The translations under genes and the position numbers were made by a program. From an uncultured Candidatus Saccharibacteria bacterium (GTDB taxonomy: Bacteria > Patescibacteriota > Minisyncoccia > UBA6257): 64,000 nucleotides of DNA. Where the stretch lies: assembly GCA_964479005.1 (NCBI GenBank), contig CAYZJA010000001.1, forward strand, positions 250,225 through 314,224, in the 5' to 3' direction. Below, in pieces: positions 2,457-40,120 of the stretch. Position 1 is the first letter of the stretch, and every line of letters starts with the position of its first letter. Below the pieces are notes generated by a model. That model saw only the letters and a program-made list of their open reading frames with translations. It was not told where the DNA came from and searched no databases.

Positions 2457-3584
2457 TTACTCCTCGATTTCCTTTTGCAGTTTTTCCAAAAGTTCTTTTG
2501 CCTGCGCAGAAACTTTCTTAGGAGTCCTAATCCTTATTTTAACATATAAATCCCCTTGGCCTGGAGCGTCAAAATGTTTAACCCCGTTTCCTCTGATACG
2601 AAAGATTTCTCCAGATTCTGTTCCAGAAGGAATTTTTAAAAGAATCTTTTTCTCTCTATCTTTTAATGAACTAAGAATTTTTACCTCTTTTTTAGTTCCA
2701 AGCACTGCCTCGGTAAAACTTATGTACAAAGTCGTATGCAAATCATCGCCCTTTCTTTCAAATGCCAAGTGTCGCCTAATTATTATTCTAATGTATAAAT
2801 CCCCGCTTAATCCATCCAATATCCCAACTTCCCCTTCTTTTCTTATCCTGATTGTTTCTCCATCTCTTATTCCAACAGGAATATCCACTTTGATCTCTTT
2901 GTTGCCATAATAACGGCCATCACCTCCGCAAGTTTTACATGGCTTTTCTGGAATTTTTCCTCTTCCTTTACATTTTGGGCATTCAATTATTTGAGTAAAC
3001 TCTCCTAAAAAGGTCCTGCGTAATTCTCTAATCACCCCTTCTCCTTTACAATTTGAACATTCTTTTAACTTGGAATTTGGTTCATATCCTTTGCCATTAC
3101 AATGTTCGCAAACAAGATAAGTTTTAAAGGAAATATCCTGTCTTGCTCCAAAAGCCGCTTCTTCTAAATCTATTTCTAGATTAACCTCAATGTCTCTCCC
3201 CTTATTTTGATATGCGCTTTTCCTTTTTCTTGTAGAAGTAGCTGCTTCTTTGAAAAAATCAGAAAAAATGTCCCCAATATCAAAGTTTCCAGAAAAACCA
3301 AATGGCGATTGGGATCCGCCTTCTTGCCATTCAAATCCGGGAAATCCCTGTTGAAATCCAGCTCCTGCTCCCTCAAATACACGGCCAAATTTATCATACT
3401 GGGTTCTTTTCTCTTTATTAGATAAAACCTGATATGCTTCGTTTATCTCTTTAAATTTTTCTGAACTACCTCCTTTATCTGGATGATGCTTATGAGCTAA
3501 TTTATAAAAAGCTTTTTTGATTTCTTCTGGAGAAGCTGAGCGCGAAACACCTAAAATATCATAATAATCTTTCATATTTATCAA
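2457..3584 (-). CDS. dnaJ: molecular chaperone DnaJ
   Basis: J domain with HPD (YYDILGV...HHPDKGG); Gly/Phe-rich linker; four CxxCxGxG zinc-finger repeats; C-terminal substrate domain. Confidence 0.9.
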
Positions 3585-29928: not shown

Positions 29929-30016
29929 TGTCTAAGATTGAATATTGGATAATTTTTTAACTAGCCTATCATTTAATAAAAATCTTCAAATTATAGTTAT
30001 GTATTTAACCAATTAA

Positions 30017-30721
30017 CTATATAAATAGAATTCCGGATAAATATTGAGCTAGCATGAACAATAAACAAGAGATCAAAATCATTATATTTAATACCTTAAT
30101 CGTTTTTATTATATTCAGACTAAATAATATACTAAGAAAAGTATAATAAGACATGTAAAGCATGACTAATAGAGAATAAAAAGGTTTACCGAGTATAAGG
30201 ATTGTAAATATGTAGCCTAAGACGCCAGCCATTATGTCTAAAAGTATCAAAATTAGTTTTTTCTTTTGTGGATACGCTAGTTGTAATTTAAGAGCGAAGT
30301 ATACAAGAAAATAAACAGTTATAATAGCTATAGCAACTGAATTATAAAGGAAAATTAATCTTAATTCATTAGCAAAAACACTCTTTATAAATGAAAACAA
30401 ACTACCTAAGAATATAATAATTCCAATACTTAATATTATGCCACCGATTGCATTCTCAAAAAGATTATCGACTGAGGTTTTGGCATATCTAATCCAGAAA
30501 TCAATAATGCAGTAGCCAATAAGTAACCCAAAAATTAACAGCAACAGGCATTGCAACATTCTCAGCGATTCAGTTTGATACTGATTTATTTGTAGAAATA
30601 AACTAGCTATGATGCCTGTAAATCCAATTATATCTATTAGCCATTTTCTATCAGAATAATATAATTTGAAGATTTCTTTTGGTCTAGATATTATTTCTCC
30701 CATTTTCTCATCACGTCTCAT
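30017..30721 (-). CDS. hypothetical polytopic membrane protein
   Basis: ORF only; preceded by island repeat. Confidence 0.4.
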   Translation of the reverse strand: MRRDEKMGEIISRPKEIFKLYYSDRKWLIDIIGFTGIIASLFLQINQYQTESLRMLQCLLLLIFGLLIGYCIIDFWIRYAKTSVDNLFENAIGGIILSIGIIIFLGSLFSFIKSVFANELRLIFLYNSVAIAIITVYFLVYFALKLQLAYPQKKKLILILLDIMAGVLGYIFTILILGKPFYSLLVMLYMSYYTFLSILFSLNIIKTIKVLNIMILISCLLFMLAQYLSGILFI

Positions 30722-30776
30722 ATAATTTATATTAATTGATTAAAATCATTCTAATTTCTTATTTATAATCACCTAT

Positions 30777-30794
30777 TGGAATAAACAATGTTAG
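30777..30794 (-). repeat. island repeat motif copy 2 (partial: AATGTTAGAACCTGTTTA)
   Basis: Shares core GTTAGAACCTGTTT with copies 1 and 3; ~58 nt upstream of ORF 30017..30721 start. Confidence 0.7.
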
Positions 30795-30810
30795 AACCTG
30801 TTTAGTGGAT

Positions 30811-31341
30811 TCAATTTAAAATTTGTCCTAAACCTTTCCAGGCTTTCAGTAAAAAATTAATTAATCCTAAATAATATTCACTCAAAAGAAAACCAAAAAG
30901 AACACTGAGAATTGCGACTTTAATTATTAAGTGAATATTCTTAAGTTCTTGCTCTTGTTTTTCTGTCTTATATCCTCTTTTTTTATAATCAAATAACTCC
31001 GGCTTCACTTTTAACATTAGTCCGTAAATTTTTTCAAATTCTTCTTCTATCCAGTTAAACCTATCAATATCTTTCTGCACTTCTCCAAAATCAGGTATAG
31101 CTACTGAATGTTTAGTTATTTTTTCCACTAATTCCTGGTCAATAAGAAACTTAACTGTATAAACAACATCCTCTAATGGCTCTAACGAATTTTTATTATA
31201 TTTGTGAAGAGGAAGTCCCTCTTTTAATTCTTTTTCTACAAAATAATTTAAACCTTCTTCATTCAATAAACGATAAACAAGGGCTTCTCTTTTTTCTAAT
31301 AATAAATTAATAAAATCTTCGTTTATCTTCATATTATCCAT
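30811..31341 (-). CDS. hypothetical protein with C-terminal TM anchor
   Basis: ORF only; preceded by island repeat. Confidence 0.4.
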   Translation of the reverse strand: MDNMKINEDFINLLLEKREALVYRLLNEEGLNYFVEKELKEGLPLHKYNKNSLEPLEDVVYTVKFLIDQELVEKITKHSVAIPDFGEVQKDIDRFNWIEEEFEKIYGLMLKVKPELFDYKKRGYKTEKQEQELKNIHLIIKVAILSVLFGFLLSEYYLGLINFLLKAWKGLGQILN

Positions 31342-31398
31342 ATTCTACCAAAAAACCGCCTCTTTTACGAGACGATTCTTCTTAAAAAAATCCGCTCT

Positions 31399-31427
31399 GG
31401 GAACTGGACGATGTTAGAACCTGTTTT
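31399..31427 (-). repeat. island repeat motif copy 3 (GGGAACTGGACGATGTTAGAACCTGTTTT)
   Basis: Identical to copy 1; ~57 nt upstream of ORF 30811..31341 start. Confidence 0.85.
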
Positions 31428-31460
31428 GGATAATAAAAATCTACAACATATAGTAAATCT

Positions 31461-31778
31461 TCAATTATCTTTGGGAATTTTTATTGTCTTTTTCCCTCTT
31501 TCCTTTCTCTTTTTTTTTGACTTTCTTCCACTCAATGCCCATTCAAGCCATTCTTTTTTCTCTATTCCAGACTGCCTGATCATTGTTCTAAGAGTTAATT
31601 CTGGATAAGACTTCGCATTTGTATTAAAATTTATTTCTACTATTTTATCATCTCCACTACTAATCCAAACCTTCCAATCATCATGAGAACCATCTTTAGA
31701 TTTAAAAAAACTAAAACCGTGAGATTTTAGAAAATTAATAACATCTTTATATGACCAATTACGAAATCTTCTTGGCAT
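31461..31778 (-). CDS. HicA-family toxin (YcfA-like mRNA interferase) with K-rich C-terminal tail
   Basis: ...FLKSHGFSFFKSKDGSHDDWKV... (GSH motif) and ...TLRTMIRQSGI match HicA pattern. Confidence 0.6.
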   Translation of the reverse strand: MPRRFRNWSYKDVINFLKSHGFSFFKSKDGSHDDWKVWISSGDDKIVEINFNTNAKSYPELTLRTMIRQSGIEKKEWLEWALSGRKSKKKRKERGKKTIKIPKDN

Positions 31779-31787
31779 AACTTAAAA

Positions 31788-32150
31788 TTAAGCCAAACAA
31801 CCAACCAAAGCAGGAATGGAGTTAGGGTTGTATTTAAGTTGCTTAGCCGATTCCAACCTGACTCGTGTAAGCTTTTGTTCTTTAATCTTTTTCTGAAATT
31901 CAAAATATTTATCCCAAAACTCTTGGGGTGCATAACGATTTAGTAAATCATCAGAAAGTTGTTTTCTGCAAACAGTTTTAAGATGAAGAATAGCTGCCTC
32001 TTCTACACTTTTCATTACTTCAATTGAGTTGTCACCTTCTTCAATAATATCAAAAGTAAGACAGACTCCAACGAATTTATCTCCACTTGAATAACCAAAA
32101 AATTCCATTAAACCTCTTCGTTTAGTGTTTTTAGGTCTCAATATTTTCAT
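31788..32150 (-). CDS. HicB-like antitoxin candidate
   Basis: Adjacent upstream of HicA; FVGVCLTFDIIEEGDNSIEVMKSVEEAAILHLK resembles HicB N-terminal (RNase H-like) pattern; weak. Confidence 0.4.
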   Translation of the reverse strand: MKILRPKNTKRRGLMEFFGYSSGDKFVGVCLTFDIIEEGDNSIEVMKSVEEAAILHLKTVCRKQLSDDLLNRYAPQEFWDKYFEFQKKIKEQKLTRVRLESAKQLKYNPNSIPALVGCLA

Positions 32151-32249
32151 TTTTAAAAATTAATTAAAATAGATTGTTTAAAGTATAACAATACAAGTCA
32201 ATAAGTCAATATCTGATAAATCGTCAGAAAATGTCCTTAAGAAGGTATG

Positions 32250-32265
32250 GCTGGACGAAGTTAGA
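32250..32265 (-). repeat. island repeat motif copy 4 (partial: CTGGACGAAGTTAGAA)
   Basis: Partial match to copies 1/3; ~97 nt upstream of HicB-like ORF start. Confidence 0.5.
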
Positions 32266-32323
32266 ATTCATATTTCTTTAGGATTCCAATTTCCATCTTT
32301 ATCGAAATCACTTGTTCAAATAT

Positions 32324-33565
32324 TTACAAAATGGGATTTTTCTTTTCTAGTAAATCCTTAACTGTGATTAGCCTTATTTCTAACTCCTTCTTATTTTTAA
32401 TCCTTGCTACTTCCTCGTAAGCACCCTTAGTAAAACTAAAAGCTACAATATAACCCTTTTTATAATTTGCCCTTTTTAGGGCAGTCTCAAAATTATCTAT
32501 AACATTACGCCCTACTTTATCAGACTGCTTTACCTGTATTCCTGCTTCTTCAGTTAAAACACTCCTTGGGTAATAACCATCTAGCCCCATATCCCCAACT
32601 TTCTTTCTGCTCGCATTAGCCCTCATTTTGTCTATCACTACCCAGTTTTGAAACTCAAAAGGTTCTAATTTTTTTACTTCCTCTATTGTAGTCGGCATAC
32701 CAATCACTTCATAATCAATACCCTCTATCGTTCCTAAAGTTTTTCCTAATCTTCGTTGCATTATCTTGATTGCTGTTGGTGAAATATCTATTCCTATCCA
32801 CCTTCTACCCAATCGTTGAGCTACAGCTACTGTTGTTCCGCAACCACAAAAAGCGTCTAAAACTATATCATTTTTGTTTGAGGACGCCTCTATTATTCTT
32901 TTTAAAAGTGCTTCTGGTTTTTGGGTGGGATAACCTACTCGCTCTTCTGCCATTGGATTTATTACGGGTATATTCCATACATCTTCCACCATTTTCCCTA
33001 ACGGATTACCTTCCCACTTATAGACTTTCTTTTTTCCACCTGGTCTTCTAATAGCGACTTCGTCTTTTAGTTCTCGGCAGTATTCTTCCTTAAGACTCGG
33101 TTCATTATAATTAAAAGTCCAATTATCTCCTTTTGTATAAAAATAAATTGTATCGTGTTTTCTTGGAAACCTTGTTTTACTTTGTCCGCCGCCCTTATAA
33201 GCCCAAATAATCTCATTTCTAAAATTTTCTACCCCAAATATCTCATCTAACATAATTCTTATATGAGCGTTGGCATGCCAATCGCAATGTATGTAAAAAG
33301 AGCCTGTAGATTTCAATATCTCATACAATGCTTGAACTCTTGGTTTAAGCCAACTAATATAATTTTCTGTTCCGCCCTCCCATCTATCTTTAAAACTTCT
33401 AATCTCCGCCTCATCGCCAAATACAACTTCATACTGTTTATGAGTAAAAAATGGCGGGTCAATATAAATCAGATCTATACTCTCTTTAGGAAGTTTAGCT
33501 AACTCTTCTAAATTATCGCCGCAAATAAGTTTGTTAATCTGCCAAAGTTTATTCTGATTAGACAT
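32324..33565 (-). CDS. beta-class N6-adenine/N4-cytosine DNA methyltransferase (orphan, no adjacent restriction enzyme)
   Basis: Motif IV IYIDPPFF near N-terminus; motif I VLDAFCGCGTTVAVAQRLGRRWIGIDIS near C-terminal half. Confidence 0.85.
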   Translation of the reverse strand: MSNQNKLWQINKLICGDNLEELAKLPKESIDLIYIDPPFFTHKQYEVVFGDEAEIRSFKDRWEGGTENYISWLKPRVQALYEILKSTGSFYIHCDWHANAHIRIMLDEIFGVENFRNEIIWAYKGGGQSKTRFPRKHDTIYFYTKGDNWTFNYNEPSLKEEYCRELKDEVAIRRPGGKKKVYKWEGNPLGKMVEDVWNIPVINPMAEERVGYPTQKPEALLKRIIEASSNKNDIVLDAFCGCGTTVAVAQRLGRRWIGIDISPTAIKIMQRRLGKTLGTIEGIDYEVIGMPTTIEEVKKLEPFEFQNWVVIDKMRANASRKKVGDMGLDGYYPRSVLTEEAGIQVKQSDKVGRNVIDNFETALKRANYKKGYIVAFSFTKGAYEEVARIKNKKELEIRLITVKDLLEKKNPIL

Positions 33566-33568
33566 AGT

Positions 33569-33718
33569 AGGGATGGGTTTTAATTTTTATGCTTATATTT
33601 ACTGGCTGGAAACACAAAGCTCCCCGCCAACGACAACCTTTCGGTCGCCCTATACCTTTCGGTATAGACCCATCCCTGAGCTCTGACGAGGAGCTTAATA
33701 TCAGGGATGGGTTTTTTA
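33569..33718. other. GC-rich structured element: AGGGATGGGT (x2, direct) with intervening ACCCATCCCT, nested hairpin CTATACC-TTTC-GGTATAG, ending in stem + T6
   Basis: 12-bp perfect stem ACCCATCCCTGA/TCAGGGATGGGT (33668-33712) followed by TTTTTT; upstream copy at 33569-33578 could pair alternatively. Confidence 0.55.
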
Positions 33719-33910
33719 TGCCATATCCTATATTAGAACTTAGGCAACTTTGATTATTTAGTTTTTACAATTAAAGAATAACATAAATTGATAAAAAGGG
33801 AAGCAGAATTGTACCCTCGTTAATTATATTAATCAATCACCATTTTAGCTTTATTTAGTCATATTTTATTGCTAAAATAGGGTTGAATAAGACATAATTA
33901 TATTATTTAT

Positions 33911-34744
33911 ATGACTGACAAAAAAATGCAAGGATGGCTCTCAGAGGCTAAAAATCCTAAAATAGAGCAAACAATAAGACTTCTAAAAATTAATAAAGAA
34001 TTTTTAAAGGATGTAGCTGTTTTACGAAAAAAATGGCCTAGTTTTATAGAAAAACATAAAACAGCAATAGATAAAATTATAATAGAACTAATAAAAATGG
34101 CTTATCAAGGATTCTTGAAGAAAGAAAAACCTTCCGATGTCGTTGAAAAAGCAAAAAAAAAGAATTTATTTCGCTCTGAAGAGCCAACTAAAGAAAATCT
34201 CTTTACCGCCAACACTAAATTTAATCAAGATATATTAGATCTATGTGAAAAATACAAACTCTATCCTATTAGTCTTTGGCGATATAGGGTAGCTATTTTT
34301 ATTGTAACTAATGATTTTTCTATTTCTAATAAATTAGCAGGAATGGATTTAGCAAAATATTTATCTCCAGAAGAAATAAGCCAAATTCCTGAAGATATGA
34401 ATTTTAGTCTTAAAATCGAAAAAAATAAAGATACCAAGGAACTAGAGTTATTCATTCAAGTATATGAAACTACATCTTTACGAGATTTGAAAAAATATTG
34501 GCATATGGTAAAACATTCTCAAGATAAGCTAAAAAAGGCCAAAAAGATAGACAAAAGATACTATCCTAAAAAAGGTCTAGAAACTGCAGAAAAGTTATTC
34601 ACATTAGATAAAACTAAATCAAAGTCTGATTGGGAAAAACATGATGCTATATATGGAGAACCTACTTCTTCTAGTAAAAAAGACGGGGAAAAAGAAACCA
34701 AAAAAACTAAAAATTTAAAAAGAATTAGGTATCGATATAAATAG
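33911..34744 (+). CDS. hypothetical Lys-rich protein
   Basis: ORF only; terminated by hairpin at 34808-34832. Confidence 0.4.
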   Translation: MTDKKMQGWLSEAKNPKIEQTIRLLKINKEFLKDVAVLRKKWPSFIEKHKTAIDKIIIELIKMAYQGFLKKEKPSDVVEKAKKKNLFRSEEPTKENLFTANTKFNQDILDLCEKYKLYPISLWRYRVAIFIVTNDFSISNKLAGMDLAKYLSPEEISQIPEDMNFSLKIEKNKDTKELELFIQVYETTSLRDLKKYWHMVKHSQDKLKKAKKIDKRYYPKKGLETAEKLFTLDKTKSKSDWEKHDAIYGEPTSSSKKDGEKETKKTKNLKRIRYRYK

Positions 34745-34807
34745 ATTTTTAAATTCGTAATTTGGGCTCATATCTTGAGACCAGTTTAAATTAGCAATTT
34801 TGTATAA

Positions 34808-34837
34808 TAACTCCAGAGATAATCTGGAGTTTTATGT
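34808..34837 (+). terminator. rho-independent terminator AACTCCAGA-GATAA-TCTGGAGTTTTAT
   Basis: 9-bp stem + T-run downstream of ORF 33911..34744. Confidence 0.7.
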
Positions 34838-35001
34838 TATTAAGCAAAAAAGCAATTAAGGAATTTAAAACGATCTATACCCGAAAATTTCATCAGGATA
34901 TAGATGACAAAACTGCTCAGGAAATGGCTAAAAGGCTCCTCCTGCTCTTTAAAATTGTCTATAAGCCCCCAACTAATAAACAATCAACTAAATATGACTA
35001 A
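34834..35001 (+). CDS. hypothetical 55-aa protein (MLLSKKAIKEFKTIYTRKFHQDIDDKTAQEMAKRLLLLFKIVYKPPTNKQSTKYD)
   Basis: Manual translation; below ORF-track cutoff; stop overlaps ATG of next ORF in ATGACTAA arrangement. Confidence 0.25.
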   Translation: MLLSKKAIKEFKTIYTRKFHQDIDDKTAQEMAKRLLLLFKIVYKPPTNKQSTKYD

Positions 35002-35290
35002 CGATAAATCTTATAATAATCTTAAAAAATGCCCTCGTTTTGATAGGTGCAATCAAAATTTATGTCCTCTTGATATAAGGCTTTCATTAAGAATCGGAGG
35101 ATCTGCTGAAAAATGTCGCTGGATGAGACCCCCTTCGAAGAAAACTATTCATGGTAAGGTCTTTATATCAGGAGGGCAGGTTATGCCAGATGGTTTATTG
35201 AATTTTGTGCCTGAGAGCAATTTAGAGTGGCTTAATACCCCCTCTAAAAAAAGATGGTTAGAAATTAAAAAAAATGAAACAAAATCCTAA
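34994..35290 (+). CDS. hypothetical Cys-rich small protein (CPRFDRCNQNLCPLD...)
   Basis: ORF-track entry 34904..35290 trimmed to internal Met that overlaps the preceding stop. Confidence 0.35.
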   Translation: MTNDKSYNNLKKCPRFDRCNQNLCPLDIRLSLRIGGSAEKCRWMRPPSKKTIHGKVFISGGQVMPDGLLNFVPESNLEWLNTPSKKRWLEIKKNETKS

Positions 35291-35795
35291 TACTAAATTG
35301 AAGCTTAGACCTTTACGTCTCAGGGGTGTCCCTTTTGCTTGGCAGGATACTAGATTAATCCCAAAAATCCGAGAGCATTTTCATAAAGAAAAGCTTACAA
35401 CTGCCCTTGCTTTATACTTTGTTTTAACAGAACTTGCTAGTATTGAAGGAAAAGGACAAGGAAAACATATAAATTGTTTAAAGGCATATCTAAAAACAAT
35501 AGCAGATCGTTGTGGTAAATCGGTATCAACAACCAAAAGATATCTCAAGGATTTTAAAAAATACAAAATTATATCCTGGAACAATCGTCGTAAAGGATTG
35601 ATGAATTTATCAAATGAATGGTTATTACTTCATTATTACCAGCCCACTAATGAACGTACCTCTATTCATAATGATAAACCTGTTATAAAGAATTATATAA
35701 AAAGAAGTTTTATTAATAATAAAAGGAATTATAAAAATGATAAAGATAAAGGGTTCGTTCCTATTAAGGAAATCATTGGCCGGAAGTATAAATAA
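35274..35795 (+). CDS. hypothetical basic protein with probable winged-helix DNA-binding region
   Basis: ORF only; ...TTALALYFVLTELAS...KSVSTTKRYLKDFKKYKII looks HTH-like. Confidence 0.35.
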   Translation: MKQNPNTKLKLRPLRLRGVPFAWQDTRLIPKIREHFHKEKLTTALALYFVLTELASIEGKGQGKHINCLKAYLKTIADRCGKSVSTTKRYLKDFKKYKIISWNNRRKGLMNLSNEWLLLHYYQPTNERTSIHNDKPVIKNYIKRSFINNKRNYKNDKDKGFVPIKEIIGRKYK

Positions 35796-35805
35796 GCTTG
35801 TAAAT

Positions 35806-36030
35806 TTAAGGGGGGGTATAGGGGGGTTCGCGCGCGCGAGGAATAATAAAAGATTTGCATAACAGTTGCAGTTGATTTTCATAAAGCAAAAGAGATATAA
35901 TAAAATATTGACCCAGATACCTCACAGGGAATCAATCTAGCGATAATGTCCTTAAAGGGGCGGTCTATACCAGTATTGCTGGATCCTTGTGAAACAGTGG
36001 GGCTGGGTCAATTATAGGCCGTCCCTTTAA
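35806..36030. other. GC-rich non-coding region upstream of recombinase: G7-TATA-G6, (CG)5 tract, and interleaved inverted repeats (TTAAAGGGGCGGTCTATA/TATAGGCCGTCCCTTTAA; TTGACCCAG/CTGGGTCAA)
   Basis: Read from sequence; right arm of the 18-bp imperfect dyad ends 10 nt before the recombinase ATG. Confidence 0.5.
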
Positions 36031-36040
36031 TTCTAAATTT

Positions 36041-37636
36041 ATGGAACAAATAACATCAAAAATTAAATATTTTCTTTATGCAAGAAAATCATCTGAATCT
36101 GAAGATAGACAGGTAGCTTCAATTGATTCACAAATAAAAGAATTAACTGGGGTAGCTAAGAAAGAAAAGCTAAAAATCATTGATGTTCTCACTGAATCTC
36201 AGTCAGCAAAGGCACCAGGAAGAAGCCAGTTTAATGATATGATCCAGAGAATCTCCAAAGGAGAAGCCCAGGGAATTTTATGTTGGAAGCTGGATAGATT
36301 AGCCAGAAACCCTATCGATGGCGGAAATATCATGTGGTTACTTCAGAGTAATACAATAAAACATATCAAAACATACAATAGGGATTATTATCCTACTGAT
36401 AATGTTTTGATGATGAGTGTAGAATTTGGCATGGCAAATCAGTTTATAAGAGATCTGAGTGAAAATACAAAGAGAGGGCTAAGAGCAAAGGCAGAAAAAG
36501 GATGGTATCCTACCTATGCCTCTTTAGGTTATATGCATAATCCTTTAAAAAGAAAAGGAGAAAAAGAAATTATTAAAGACCCGGAAAGGTTTGATCTTAT
36601 AAGAAAGATATTTGATTTAATGCTTACTGGTTGCTATACACCGCCTAAAATTTTAAAAATCGCTACTGAGAAATGGGGATTAAAAAATAAGCAAGGAGGA
36701 AAAGTTGCCAGAAGTACTGTTTATAGAATACTAACTGATCCATTTTATTATGGTCAATTTGAATATCCAAAAGAAAGTGGAAATTGGTATAAGGGCAAAC
36801 ATAAACTTATGATAACTCTAGAAGAATATGACAAAATTCAAATTTTACTTGGGAGAAAAGGTAAACCTCGATCTAAAACGCATACTTTCGCTTTTACCGG
36901 AATGATTAGATGTAGCGAATGCGAAGCAATGATTACAGCCGAAGAAAAAATTAAAATACAAAAAAACGGAAATATTCATAAATATATTTATTATCATTGC
37001 ACCAAGAAAAAAGATTCTCATTGCTCCCAAAAATCTATAGAACAAAAAGAATTAGAAAAACAAATCCTGGATATTTTGGGTGGAATTGAAATTCCTCCAG
37101 AATTTCATCAATGGGCAATGAAGTGGATACAAATTGAAAATAAAAAAGAAAGTAAAGCAAGGAACCAAATTATAGTAAACCATCAAGAAAGCTATAAAAA
37201 ATGTTTAAAGAGAATTGATAATCTTATTGATATGAGATCTGCTGAGGATATAACGAAAAAAGAATTTCTGAGAAAAAAATCGGAGTTAAGTCAGGAAAAG
37301 ATTCGATTAGAAGAATTACTCGCGGATACAGGAAACAGAATTAATAAACAATTAGAGAAAGCTGAGGAAGCATTTTTATTTGCTGAAAAAGCTAAAGAAA
37401 GATTTGAAAATGGAGACATCAAAGACAAAAAAGAAATTCTAACAGCCCTAGGTTCGAACCTCATTTTAAAAGATAAAAAGCTAAGTATAACAATACAAAA
37501 ACCACTTTTCCTTATTGAAAAAGTGGCCAAACAGGTTAAAGCAATTAATCAAAGGTTAGAACCTCTGAAAAACCGCATAACAAATAACGAATTGGAGGAA
37601 ATCTATCTTCAAAATCCTACGTTGCTCCGCGGGTAG
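36041..37636 (+). CDS. large serine recombinase (integrase-type)
   Basis: Resolvase catalytic domain with active-site Ser (YARKSSESEDRQVASIDSQ), recombinase domain, zinc ribbon (CSEC...YYHCTKK), C-terminal coiled coil; 3' end overlaps tRNA-Asn. Confidence 0.9.
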   Translation: MEQITSKIKYFLYARKSSESEDRQVASIDSQIKELTGVAKKEKLKIIDVLTESQSAKAPGRSQFNDMIQRISKGEAQGILCWKLDRLARNPIDGGNIMWLLQSNTIKHIKTYNRDYYPTDNVLMMSVEFGMANQFIRDLSENTKRGLRAKAEKGWYPTYASLGYMHNPLKRKGEKEIIKDPERFDLIRKIFDLMLTGCYTPPKILKIATEKWGLKNKQGGKVARSTVYRILTDPFYYGQFEYPKESGNWYKGKHKLMITLEEYDKIQILLGRKGKPRSKTHTFAFTGMIRCSECEAMITAEEKIKIQKNGNIHKYIYYHCTKKKDSHCSQKSIEQKELEKQILDILGGIEIPPEFHQWAMKWIQIENKKESKARNQIIVNHQESYKKCLKRIDNLIDMRSAEDITKKEFLRKKSELSQEKIRLEELLADTGNRINKQLEKAEEAFLFAEKAKERFENGDIKDKKEILTALGSNLILKDKKLSITIQKPLFLIEKVAKQVKAINQRLEPLKNRITNNELEEIYLQNPTLLRG

Positions 37637-37920
37637 GATTCGAACCTACAACCTACTGGTTACACCTAATCTCTAAGTTTCCTTAAAGGGTGGACTATAT
37701 CTTCACCTTGTCTGTTTAAAACAGATTTAGGTGTCTCGGTATCTAGTCTCTACGGCGCCCCCGTGTTATAACACAAGGTTCCCACGGTATTAGCATAGTT
37801 TGATATTATCAAACTTTAGCCTTCACCGTTATCCCGAGATGTTCATTCCAAGGTTTCCCCTGAAAGCTGCGAAATAGGAATCATCCACAGCCAGACGCTC
37901 TACCATTGAGCTACCGCGGA
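37625..37920 (-). tRNA. tRNA-Asn (anticodon GUU) interrupted by a ~224-nt group I-like intron in the anticodon loop; CCA not encoded
   Basis: 5' exon TCCGCGGTAGCTCAATGGTAGAGCGTCTGGCTGT (37887-37920) + 3' exon TAACCAGTAGGTTGTAGGTTCGAATCCTACCCGCGGAG (37625-37662) give cloverleaf with U1-A72, G73, loop CUGUUAA, T-loop GGTTCGAATCC. Confidence 0.7.
37663..37886 (-). other. group I (IC3-like) intron within tRNA-Asn
   Basis: Begins after exon U and ends with G; internal guide GCAGCU 17 nt in can pair exon GGCUGU (U.G at splice site); contains GUAGAGACUAGA...CACCUAA matching the J8/7-P7-P9.0 segment of Azoarcus/cyanobacterial tRNA group I introns; GGGGAAACC near 5' end. Confidence 0.6.
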
Positions 37921-37937
37921 ATGTTTTGATTATACTA

Positions 37938-38555
37938 TTATTTTTTTGATTTATCAAATAGATTATTGGTTTTGGCAACTATTGGGCCTTTTGATTTGGA
38001 ATAAAGTGATTTTTTCCGTTTATTATATGGAACTTCTGCTGGCGAAGATAAAAATTCTACTGCTATCTGACAAATATGCATATCAGGGTATAAAGCCACT
38101 GGCAAATTAGATTGATTGCTAATTTCCAATGTCAAAGTCCCCTCAAATCCTGGATCTACAAAACCAGCTGTATGCACTAAAATTCCCATTCTGGCTAAAG
38201 TGCTTTTGCCTTCTATCTTTAAAACCATATCATCTGGCACTTTTACATATTCTTTAGTGCTAACTAAAATAAAATCATTGGGATGTAAAATAAAAGATTC
38301 CCCTATCTTTACTTTTTTAGTAATAATAAAATCTTCGTCTGGCAACCTTTTTTTAGTATCTAAAAGGCATTGCTTGGTAACATTAAATTTTTTAAAAATC
38401 GGCCCTAATTTCAAATCAATAGAAGCAGGGCCTATTTGACCCTTACTTAAACTCGGTTTAAAAATTAACTTTTTACTTTTTATTACCTTTTTTATATCTC
38501 TGTCTGAAAGAATCATATTATTTTTAATTTTACCTTTATATTTAGAAATTATCAA
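37938..38555 (-). CDS. dcd: dCTP deaminase
   Basis: MILSDRDIKK...GQIGPASIDLKLG... trimeric dUTPase-fold Dcd signature. Confidence 0.85.
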   Translation of the reverse strand: MIISKYKGKIKNNMILSDRDIKKVIKSKKLIFKPSLSKGQIGPASIDLKLGPIFKKFNVTKQCLLDTKKRLPDEDFIITKKVKIGESFILHPNDFILVSTKEYVKVPDDMVLKIEGKSTLARMGILVHTAGFVDPGFEGTLTLEISNQSNLPVALYPDMHICQIAVEFLSSPAEVPYNKRKKSLYSKSKGPIVAKTNNLFDKSKK

Positions 38556-38562
38556 CCTATAT

Positions 38563-38628
38563 AAATAAAGACAGCGCAGATAGATATTATCTTTATTGAT
38601 TGATAATTCTATCTGCGCCCTTAGTCTT
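38563..38628 (-). terminator. hairpin GCGCAGATAGA..TCTATCTGCGC followed (minus strand) by T-rich tract
   Basis: 11+6 bp inverted repeat; lies between tRNA-Gln and dcd. Confidence 0.5.
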
Positions 38629-38949
38629 AGGTAGATATAGGTATGGGTATTACTTTTAAATTTCCTGAAAATACTCCCCTTTTTGCTGTTCTCATATTTC
38701 TTATTATTACCCTATTTTCACAATCACCATATTTAGTTCCTGTTTTGTATACATCATTATATTTACTTATACCACCAAAAACCCTAAACATTGTTCCCTG
38801 TTTTAATTCAAGCAGTTTCATTTTCATTTCCTCCTTTATATTTATTTAATATACCTAAATCTTCTATTTTTTAAGATAAATTTCAATGTGCAATCTTTCA
38901 CTAATCCTAGTATCATTAGGATAGCACATTGGTAATACATTGTCAATAG

Positions 38950-39020
38950 CTGCGGGACCTGGATTCGAACCAGGATATCATTCTCCAGAGGAATGCGTCC
39001 TACCATTAGACGATCCCGCA
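38950..39020 (-). tRNA. tRNA-Gln (anticodon CUG), CCA not encoded
   Basis: Minus strand TGCGGGATCGTCTAATGGTAGGACGCATTCCTCTGGAGAATGATATCCTGGTTCGAATCCAGGTCCCGCAG: U1-A72 and G73 as in bacterial tRNA-Gln, anticodon loop CUCUGGA, T-arm CCTGG-TTCGAAT-CCAGG. Confidence 0.8.
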
Positions 39021-39028
39021 ATAATTTC

Positions 39029-40120
39029 TTAAAGCTCTTGGCTAATGCATATTTCAAAAGGCAATGTTGGGATTGGTGTTCGCCTAAGTTGTACCTGAAT
39101 TTCAATAAATCTTCCTAATAATTTCTCAAGATAAGGAGTATTAAAAAACTCTGCCTGCTTAAATAAAGTTGTCATTTCCTCAGAAGTTGTATCCTTTTCC
39201 AATAATTTCCCCAGTGTTGGAGAAATTTTAAGCAATAAAACTTTTCTTAAATAATTCAACACTTCTTTGTTAAAAACCTCCAAATCATAGCCTTCATCGT
39301 AAATCTTGCTAATAAATTCCAATGCTTTTTCTTTATTCTTCTTTGCCAAGCAATCAATAAATCTTTTTATTTTTTCAAAATTAATAGCCCCTACTAATTC
39401 CTCTACCGCTTTTTTTGTAATATTTTTTTCTGTTACTAAAGATATTTGTCCTAATAATGATTCTGCATCACGTAGATCCCCTTCAGAATAAAGAGTTATT
39501 AATCTTAATGCTTCCTCTTCAAATTTTATTTTTTCCTGTTTGCAGATATAAATGAGACGTTTAATCGTATCATTTAAATTTAATTTTTTAAAATCATAGC
39601 GTTGAACTCGAGAAAGAATAGTCGCAAGTAGTTTATCTGGTTCTGTCGTAGCTAAGATGAAAATTACGTACTCTGGCGGTTCTTCCAGGGTTTTTAACAA
39701 AGCATTAAAACCTTCTTTGGTTATTTGATGCGCTTCATCTATTATAAAAATTTTATATTTGGAATTAATTGGTGGAAATTTGATATTTTCCCTTAAAGAA
39801 CGAGCATCTTCAATCCCACGATTAGAAGCAGCATCTATTTCTATCAAGTCCAAAGAATGTCCAGCATTAATCGCTTGACAGGACTCACATTTATTACAAG
39901 GCTCAAATTCATTGGATTTTCGGTTTTGGCAATTTAAGGCCTTAGCTAATAAACGAGCTACTGTTGTCTTTCCTACTCCACGGGGTCCGGAAAAAAGATA
40001 GGCATGAGCAATTTGCCCTTGTATAAGGGCATTAGATAAGGTCTTGATCGTATTTTTTTGATTGATTACTTCAGCAAAAACCTTGGGACGATATTTGCGA
40101 GAAAAAACAAGTTGAGCCAT
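39029..40120 (-). CDS. dnaX: DNA polymerase III subunit gamma/tau (short form)
   Basis: Walker A GPRGVGKTT, zinc module CQNRKSNEFEPCNKCESC, DEAH (IIDEAHQIT), SRVQ sensor. Confidence 0.85.
   Translation of the reverse strand: MAQLVFSRKYRPKVFAEVINQKNTIKTLSNALIQGQIAHAYLFSGPRGVGKTTVARLLAKALNCQNRKSNEFEPCNKCESCQAINAGHSLDLIEIDAASNRGIEDARSLRENIKFPPINSKYKIFIIDEAHQITKEGFNALLKTLEEPPEYVIFILATTEPDKLLATILSRVQRYDFKKLNLNDTIKRLIYICKQEKIKFEEEALRLITLYSEGDLRDAESLLGQISLVTEKNITKKAVEELVGAINFEKIKRFIDCLAKKNKEKALEFISKIYDEGYDLEVFNKEVLNYLRKVLLLKISPTLGKLLEKDTTSEEMTTLFKQAEFFNTPYLEKLLGRFIEIQVQLRRTPIPTLPFEICISQEL

Follow-up and report, generated by a model that had tools for sequence, protein, structure and literature searches.

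LOOT RNAs were first described from metagenomes (Weinberg et al, 2017, PMC5737381) and are drawn in Fig 1 of the Rfam 14 paper (PMC7779021). Rfam types the family, RF03000, as "Gene; sRNA" with its function not known, and its model ends at helix P5. Our literature search, which covered publications other than the original supplementary description of LOOT, found neither a functional study of this RNA nor an RNA leader for restriction-modification (RM) genes, and, as far as we found, nothing in print on the gene association and mechanism for which comparative evidence is given below.

The expression of RM genes is controlled by C (controller) proteins, by autorepression of the DNA methyltransferase (MTase), and by antisense RNAs. 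As the leader proposed here would, these controls act on the gene that is first or critical in RM systems, which move between hosts; they are, however, DNA-binding proteins or antisense transcripts, whereas LOOT is a large structured leader in cis that is found across type I-, II-, and III-like systems. Translational riboswitch platforms and three-segment switches resemble the proposed leader in that one strand has two exclusive partners, by which the start is hidden or freed, and that a complex conserved structured domain lies upstream. In contrast to translational riboswitches, LOOT has no known ligand, its hidden segment is a locus-specific "address" instead of a Shine-Dalgarno (SD) sequence, and its downstream genes are DNA MTases and not metabolic genes. 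Similarly, in the translational attenuation of erm, an rRNA methylase, alternative hairpins (1:2, 2:3, and 3:4) set the access to the start codon; this system, however, uses a conserved leader peptide and ribosome stalling, whereas the candidate short ORF that begins at a NUG in the tail of LOOT is not conserved. Finally, synthetic toehold switches gate a start codon with a programmable stem on a constant scaffold. LOOT is alike in that the sequence of its P3 helix is freely changeable on a constant scaffold and would gate a start codon, but it is natural, its competitor strand is built into the molecule itself, and a trigger RNA is not known.

The window, i.e., the whole 64,000-nucleotide stretch of DNA analysed here, belongs to a metagenomic contig of 551,616 bp. 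It holds a GC-rich element (GC 0.53 at 33600–33699 vs 0.22–0.36 in the flanks and ~0.25–0.35 in the genome) for which a sequence-only reading had reported direct repeats, a stem followed by T6, and a hairpin, all of which we find in place. AGGGATGGGT occurs exactly at 33569–33578(+) and 33703–33712(+), with an exact complement at 33668–33677, and these are the only three exact copies of the 10-mer in the entire 64 kb (~0.1 by chance). Moreover, ACCCATCCCTGA (33668–33679) and TCAGGGATGGGT (33701–33712) form a perfect 12-bp stem with TTTTTT next to it at 33713–33718, and a perfect CTATACC-TTTC-GGTATAG hairpin lies at 33650–33667.

Scanning with cmscan identifies the element as a member of the known RNA family LOOT, on the strand opposite to the one that had been emphasized. 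The minus strand matches RF03000 over its full length (model positions 1–121 of 121) with 72.1 bits (E 5.1e-13; gathering score 46.4), no match occurs on the plus strand, and no riboswitch family in Rfam is matched. The suggestion that the element is a structured RNA is borne out by this match, and the minus-strand fold of −69.5 kcal/mol is far below that of shuffled sequence (z −5.7). The window copy shares with the family its origin in uncultivated bacteria and metagenomes, the conserved elements CCUAA, AUGG, and the A-run, and its helices: the cmscan alignment and the MFE fold both contain P1-P2, a long two-part P3, and two adjacent hairpins capped by GAAA. The hairpin previously described as nested is real, yet it is not nested but corresponds to P4, the neighbour of P5. 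Likewise, the extent of 33569–33718 given earlier holds the features named for it but is too small, since the LOOT core reaches 33746 and a promoter-like −10 element lies at ~33775–33783. Whereas the Rfam model stops at P5, the RNA here runs on into a tail with a covarying pairing to the tip of P3, and in 26 loci it extends further, to a second copy of the P3 5′ arm at the start site of MTase or RM genes. The parts of the leader are listed in Table 1.

Table 1. Elements of the LOOT leader and its downstream gene in the window, ordered 5′ to 3′ on the minus strand.
Element	Sequence	Position	Strand	Basis and remarks
Promoter-like extended −10	TGTTATTCT	33775..33783	-	Conserved motif; putative function
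LOOT core (P1, P2, long P3, P4, P5)		33632..33746	-	RF03000 match
P3 5′ arm, "X"; proposed decoy for the start-site copy	ACCCAUCCCUGA	33701..33712	-	12 bp perfect with 33668-33679
P3 apical segment, "a"; partner of the 3′ tail	GCUCCUCGUCAG	33683..33694	-	Covariation; duplex −19.7 kcal/mol
P3 3′ arm, "X-prime"; strand common to both pairings (X or start-site copy)	UCAGGGAUGGGU	33668..33679	-	Complementarity
P4 hairpin, GAAA tetraloop	CUAUACC-GAAA-GGUAUAG	33650..33667	-	Sequence, cmscan, MFE fold
P5 hairpin, GAAA tetraloop	GGCGACC-GAAA-GGUUGUC	33632..33649	-	Sequence, cmscan, MFE fold
3′ tail, "t"; pairs with the P3 apical segment	UUGGCGGGGAGC	33619..33630	-	Covariation; outside the Rfam model; in all loci
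U-rich tract right after the tail	UUUGUGUUU	33610..33618	-	Possible partial terminator
t-prime; alternative tail partner, giving hairpin P6	CCAGCCAG	33602..33609	-	Pairing count; in MFE fold
Start-site copy of X, 3 nt before the MTase AUG	ACCCAUCCCU	33569..33578	-	Identical to P3 5′ arm; 9-10 bp with X-prime
DNA methyltransferase gene, 413 aa		32324..33565	-	ORF; Pfam domains; no Shine-Dalgarno

The strand assignment bears directly on the transcript that the sequence-only reading had put first, a small RNA or attenuator of ~150 nt on the plus strand that ends in the 12-bp stem and T6 as an intrinsic terminator. The plus strand does have such a stem and T6, and it too folds better than shuffled sequence (−60.8 kcal/mol, z −3.7), albeit more weakly than the minus strand. 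Against such an RNA, the Rfam match and both GAAA tetraloops exist on the minus strand only, and so do the frequent U-G pairs: two positions of the pseudoknot between a and t are U-G in 72 of 90 and 84 of 89 sequences, pairs that a plus-strand RNA would have as A-C mismatches. Because U-G dominates these two positions, we assign the RNA to the minus strand. Further, no plus-strand gene or conserved promoter leads into the element, the loop of the plus-strand stem measures 21 nt, whereas the short GC-rich hairpin of an intrinsic terminator has a loop of 3–8 nt, and a terminator scan of 33400–33950 on both strands called no site. The T6 is the complement of the conserved A-run of LOOT; the plus-strand "12-bp stem plus T6" is P3 together with the preceding A-run, read backwards, and a functional RNA of this polarity is highly improbable. 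A 54-aa ORF at 33589–33753(+) lies opposite LOOT along its whole length and is almost certainly no gene.

On the minus strand, transcription is predicted to start near 33767, ~20 nt before P1. The extended −10 motif (TGnTATTYT, or TATAAT in other lineages) is kept 25–35 nt upstream of P1 in related loci, and an "ACAAYTTAAT"-like conserved segment is found just 5′ of P1; both are outside the Rfam model and lie within 33747–33783(−) in the window and in the corresponding flanks of L131–L318. LOOT would be transcribed from this promoter of its own and continue into the MTase mRNA, of which it would form the 5′ leader. In the U-rich tract, whose UUU-N-UG-UUU pattern is nearly invariant in loci with the start-site repeat, some transcripts may terminate, which could release an RNA of ~145 nt; the preceding tail helix encloses ~63 nt. 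No promoter-like site was detected between LOOT and the MTase gene, and we infer that the latter is transcribed by read-through. The gene begins 66 nt past the end of the Rfam match and encodes an N6_N4_Mtase domain (E 9.9e-57) followed by a C-terminal Mrr_cat domain (E 7.9e-09, both Pfam). The earlier description as an "orphan" MTase is therefore only partly apt, as a nuclease-type domain is contained in the same protein.

We propose, with a probability of roughly 0.6, that this RNA is a bistable translational leader that hides or exposes the start site of the MTase mRNA. In read-through transcripts, the MTase start lacks an SD sequence and positions −13 to −4 (ACCCAUCCCU) repeat the P3 5′ arm. 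Since the two are identical, the P3 3′ arm AGGGAUGGGU can pair with either copy, though with only one of them at a time. Pairing with the 5′ arm would complete the LOOT fold and leave the start region open, with translation on; pairing with the start-region copy would form a helix of 9–10 bp abutting the AUG and turn translation off. The 5′ arm would be a decoy within the leader itself, normally occupied with the 3′ arm; if an input of any kind weakened P3, the 3′ arm would shift to the start region and prevent initiation. Candidate triggers are a ligand or protein that binds the conserved core, formation of the pseudoknot, and folding kinetics. Helices over positions −15 to +5 block 30S binding, and on this rule pairing of the start region is expected to repress.

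Relatives were gathered with a motif pattern derived from the LOOT core of the window. Among species-representative genomes, 90 pattern hits contained 29 true LOOTs, and 100 metagenomic contigs were matched. Parsing yielded 116 LOOT instances, 98 of them non-identical, and 89 non-identical loci could be analysed for the repeat. Twenty related loci were re-scanned with Rfam and all scored above the LOOT cut-off (68–100 bits). Viral sequences gave no LOOT: a first pattern scan of viral contigs returned 120 chance hits, mostly "ATGGCAAAAAA" gene starts, a stricter pattern gave eight hits of which none passes Rfam, and blastn found no match in phage genomes.

We then scored each locus for an exact complement of its P3 3′ arm, at least 8 nt long and 20–120 nt downstream. 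The locus's own P3 repeat, usually 9–11 nt, is present in 26 of 89 loci, a frequency of 29% that is not a population estimate because the loci were gathered with a pattern from this window. Non-cognate combinations of LOOT and downstream region match in only 22 of 7356 cases (0.3%), the upstream control in 1 of 82, and opposite-sense copies occur in none of the loci tested. In the loci with the repeat (class A, n = 26; class B, loci without), the start-site copy always ends 0–3 nt from the ATG of a long ORF, SD-like motifs are found in 0 of 26 start regions, and the spacing from P5 to the ATG is 50–67 nt, whereas LOOT-to-ATG distances overall vary between 15 and 117 nt. The start-site copy pairs with the 3′ arm over 9–12 bp in 26/26 loci (8 bp in L160). 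This match at three places is maintained by 12 different X addresses, e.g., CCCGCUACAGG, CCGUUCAGAGU, CCGACCAAGGC, and CUAUCCCUAGU; CCGTTCAGAGU is the X of another locus. Homologous MTases of the window and L299 carry different X at all three places. The 5′ arm and the start-site copy show three internal differences, and the 3′ arm pairing is kept in three of three cases as Watson-Crick or G-U pairs, which is weak evidence because most transitions are tolerated. Comparative sequence support for a two-state MTase switch, which the sequence-only reading had raised as one option, is strong: the three-way match is found in 26 loci with 12 sequences, nearly always before MTase or RM genes.

As an alternative, X could be the recognition site of the MTase. 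We rejected this candidate since MTases of different families can share one X, whereas homologous MTases are preceded by different X.

In ~21 of 26 class A loci, the gene behind the repeat encodes a DNA MTase or RM protein and may be the leading gene of an RM operon of type I, II, or III, with 17 of them confirmed by Pfam as N6_N4_Mtase with or without Mrr_cat, MethyltransfD12 (D12 MTase), or HSDR_N_2 plus N6_Mtase/Eco57I-like. The next gene, often with an overlap of 4 nt, encodes a type III res subunit (ResIII) in L144, L178, and L228; in L231 and L235 it is a gene for a PD-(D/E)XK nuclease, and in L284 one for a type I specificity subunit (Methylase_S). As res and the MTase gene share 4 or 17 nt, the proposed switch would act on the entire operon. 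In contrast, an MTase lies downstream in 0 of 44 class B loci checked, where the genes are heterogeneous. With ~21/26 against 0/44, the repeat is specific to the first gene of RM units from three enzyme families. Two class A loci, L160 (212–1073(+)) and L292 (107–972(+)), have the leader, the start-site copy, and the first ~7 codons (MPNQNKL and MLYQKKL) as in MTase loci, and then continue into a protein of 226–229 aa that is no MTase, contains an HExxH motif, and has no Pfam match; the recombination junction lies just within the ORF.

A co-directional gene follows directly 3′ of LOOT in 23 of 23 class A and 54 of 56 class B loci (77/79). The placement of LOOT is that of a 5′ leader, unlike the Rfam label "sRNA". 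It argues against a different role for the same strand, in which LOOT would be a separate trans-acting sRNA of ~140–150 nt that ends at the tail and U-tract, and the start-site copy its antisense target on an MTase mRNA made independently or by occasional read-through, with adjacency reflecting co-inheritance of regulator and target. Besides the Rfam class, such an sRNA would be in keeping with the GC-rich long-range a:t helix followed by a conserved U-rich tract, a terminator-like arrangement, with the 63 LOOT loci that lack a cis target, and with L219 and L287, where the X at the MTase start matches the P3 of another LOOT type, that of L281, which would also explain why distinct X exist. However, neither a consensus terminator nor an internal promoter was detected, and the antisense strand is held in a perfect stem of 11–12 bp that is stronger than the intermolecular duplex (−22.5 vs −18.8 kcal/mol). 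Moreover, a search of all collected loci for trans targets of the form "AAA-X-ATG" turned up nothing beyond cis sites, duplicates, and a single chance match that lies within an ORF (L257). We consider the sRNA unlikely as the sole explanation, although it and the cis leader may both hold. As 63 of 89 loci are without the repeat, LOOT also has a repeat-independent function.

The comparison of paired segments across related loci reveals covariation. A first MAFFT alignment (A1) was out of structural register and was replaced by a segment-wise alignment in which a and t were each aligned from sequence alone, independently of each other. Over eight column pairs in 90 sequences, 96.4% of the a:t pairs are canonical, with compensatory changes in 8/8; shuffling reaches at most 85% and slid registers 43–68%. 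One of these pairs alone occurs as C-G (41), G-C (24), A-U (14), U-A (4), and U-G (6). P2 is 87.8% canonical in the 90 relatives with 6/6 pairs compensated, while the compensated variation of P3, P4, and P5 is not independent evidence because these helices were defined by pairing. The 12-nt 3′ tail would pair with the P3 tip as a pseudoknot or as an alternative helix, and its competing pairing with t-prime, hairpin P6, has at least five contiguous pairs in 26/26 class A loci (mean 6.5 vs 4.4 shuffled). Thus, a chain of helices is in competition: the P3 tip hairpin, tip:tail, the tail in P6, and the P3 3′ arm with the start-site copy. An additional start-codon helix "P7" (GRCAU:AUGYC), the loop of which would hold the start-site copy, can be drawn in many class A loci but is weakly indicated, with at least 5 bp in 42% of cognate vs 18% of permuted combinations. 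A leader-peptide attenuator initiated at the conserved tail NUG, with GGGGAG as a possible SD, was considered and rejected: the ORFs can be as short as 2 or longer than 20 codons, no end, frame, or peptide is conserved among them, and in-frame fusions of the NUG ORF to the downstream genes occur at about chance frequency.

Folding energies place the two states close to each other. The MFE of the window leader is −70.6 kcal/mol with P3 formed and the start region mostly open, compared with −68.6 kcal/mol when X-prime is forced onto the start-site copy. Across the 26 loci, the gap averages +2.9 kcal/mol (sd 3.5) at totals of −65 to −93. These energies fit a two-state design in balance, with a slight preference for the open state. 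As the states are nearly isoenergetic, a modest input could switch the RNA from one to the other. Since the local P3 forms first during transcription and is ~3 kcal/mol more stable on average, the RNA may seldom be "off" unless triggered.

The repeat runs past the part that pairs. GCAUAAAA and the A-run are also repeated, and the LOOT "GGCAUAAAAA-X" mirrors the start-site "GCAUAAAAAUUAAAA-X" (window 33713–33722 and 33579–33596, minus strand), which suggests a duplication. The three-way repeat could then be a DNA-level feature, in which the direct repeats of A-run and X are products or sites of duplication or recombination that places or exchanges a promoter–LOOT module ahead of different genes, possibly as phase variation, and the complementarity of the start site to the P3 3′ arm is a by-product only. 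Module movement itself is suggested by the recurrence of promoter, LOOT, and MTase (window 32337–33815) at 78–88% identity in L219, L223, L278, L281, L283, and L287, within otherwise unrelated flanks; homology extends from ~40–70 nt 5′ of P1 (~33785–33815 in the window) to the MTase stop. A DNA-level origin is also consistent with a serine recombinase gene 2.5 kb away, with the shared leader and ~7 codons of L160 and L292 that lead into a different protein, and with chimeric forms of P3. In L283 (~3190–3300, minus) and L253 (1401–1565, plus), the 5′ arm CCGTTCAGGG equals the start-site copy while the 3′ arm is CCTGCGAAGG, so that the copy is present without its complementary arm, as fits a DNA-level repeat. 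L219 and L287 have a matched P3 together with the same MTase and the same non-matching start-site copy as L283 and L253. L253 and L287 come from one sample (Ga0210018), in which both P3 forms occur together. The chimeric stems may result from recombination or phase variation between LOOT copies. All four loci carry the same MTase type, but their start-site copy finds no pairing partner in the adjacent P3 3′ arm; cis pairing is therefore not obligatory.

On the other hand, the repeats are only 10–14 nt long, always lie 0–3 nt from the ATG, and keep a fixed distance to P5. Without selection for pairing, 12 versions of X that match in three places would need repeated re-duplication, and the differences between copies keep the 3′ arm pairing, including G-U. 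In addition, the two RNA states are energetically balanced, and the link is to MTase and RM genes and not to genes of mobile elements. An exclusively DNA-level cause is thus quite improbable, while the four loci without cis pairing and the extension of the repeat keep it, as well as trans action by other LOOTs, alive.

Extending the bistable leader to the family, we tentatively suggest, at somewhat less than even odds, that LOOT is a modular addressable RM riboregulator in Patescibacteria. It would consist of a sensor core (P1-P2, P4, P5, and the pseudoknot) and a variable address helix P3, whose 3′ strand is antisense to an SD-less MTase start and whose 5′ strand is the decoy. If so, it would be the first structured-RNA controller of RM expression, and an orphan Rfam family labelled as sRNA would gain a function; distinct addresses would prevent cross-talk among several RM systems in one small genome, and LOOTs that lack a target in cis might regulate starts of this kind in trans. 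Potentially toxic RM genes in bacteria with tiny genomes would be under a new kind of control, a natural analogue of toehold-type switches. The data as they stand give LOOT a gene association with MTases and RM operons of three types, a 5′ leader position, and a three-way pairing at the start codon that can be tested by mutation. The covarying tail pairing would extend the Rfam model.

Many of the metagenome-assembled genomes (MAGs) that bear LOOT are labelled Patescibacteria/candidate phyla radiation (Nealsonbacteria, Levybacteria, Doudnabacteria, Moranbacteria, and others); several are labelled as other lineages, which MAG binning may explain. L295 is the sole contig with two LOOT copies, at 2895 and 7242(+), 4.3 kb apart on the same strand. 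They differ in P3 sequence, and a start-site copy accompanies neither. In the window, the LOOT–MTase unit lies in an apparent island at 30000–39100, together with a HicA/HicB-like pair (31461–32150(−)), ORFs without assigned function (33911–35795(+)), the large serine recombinase (36041–37636(+)), and a tRNA-Gln (38949–39020(−)).
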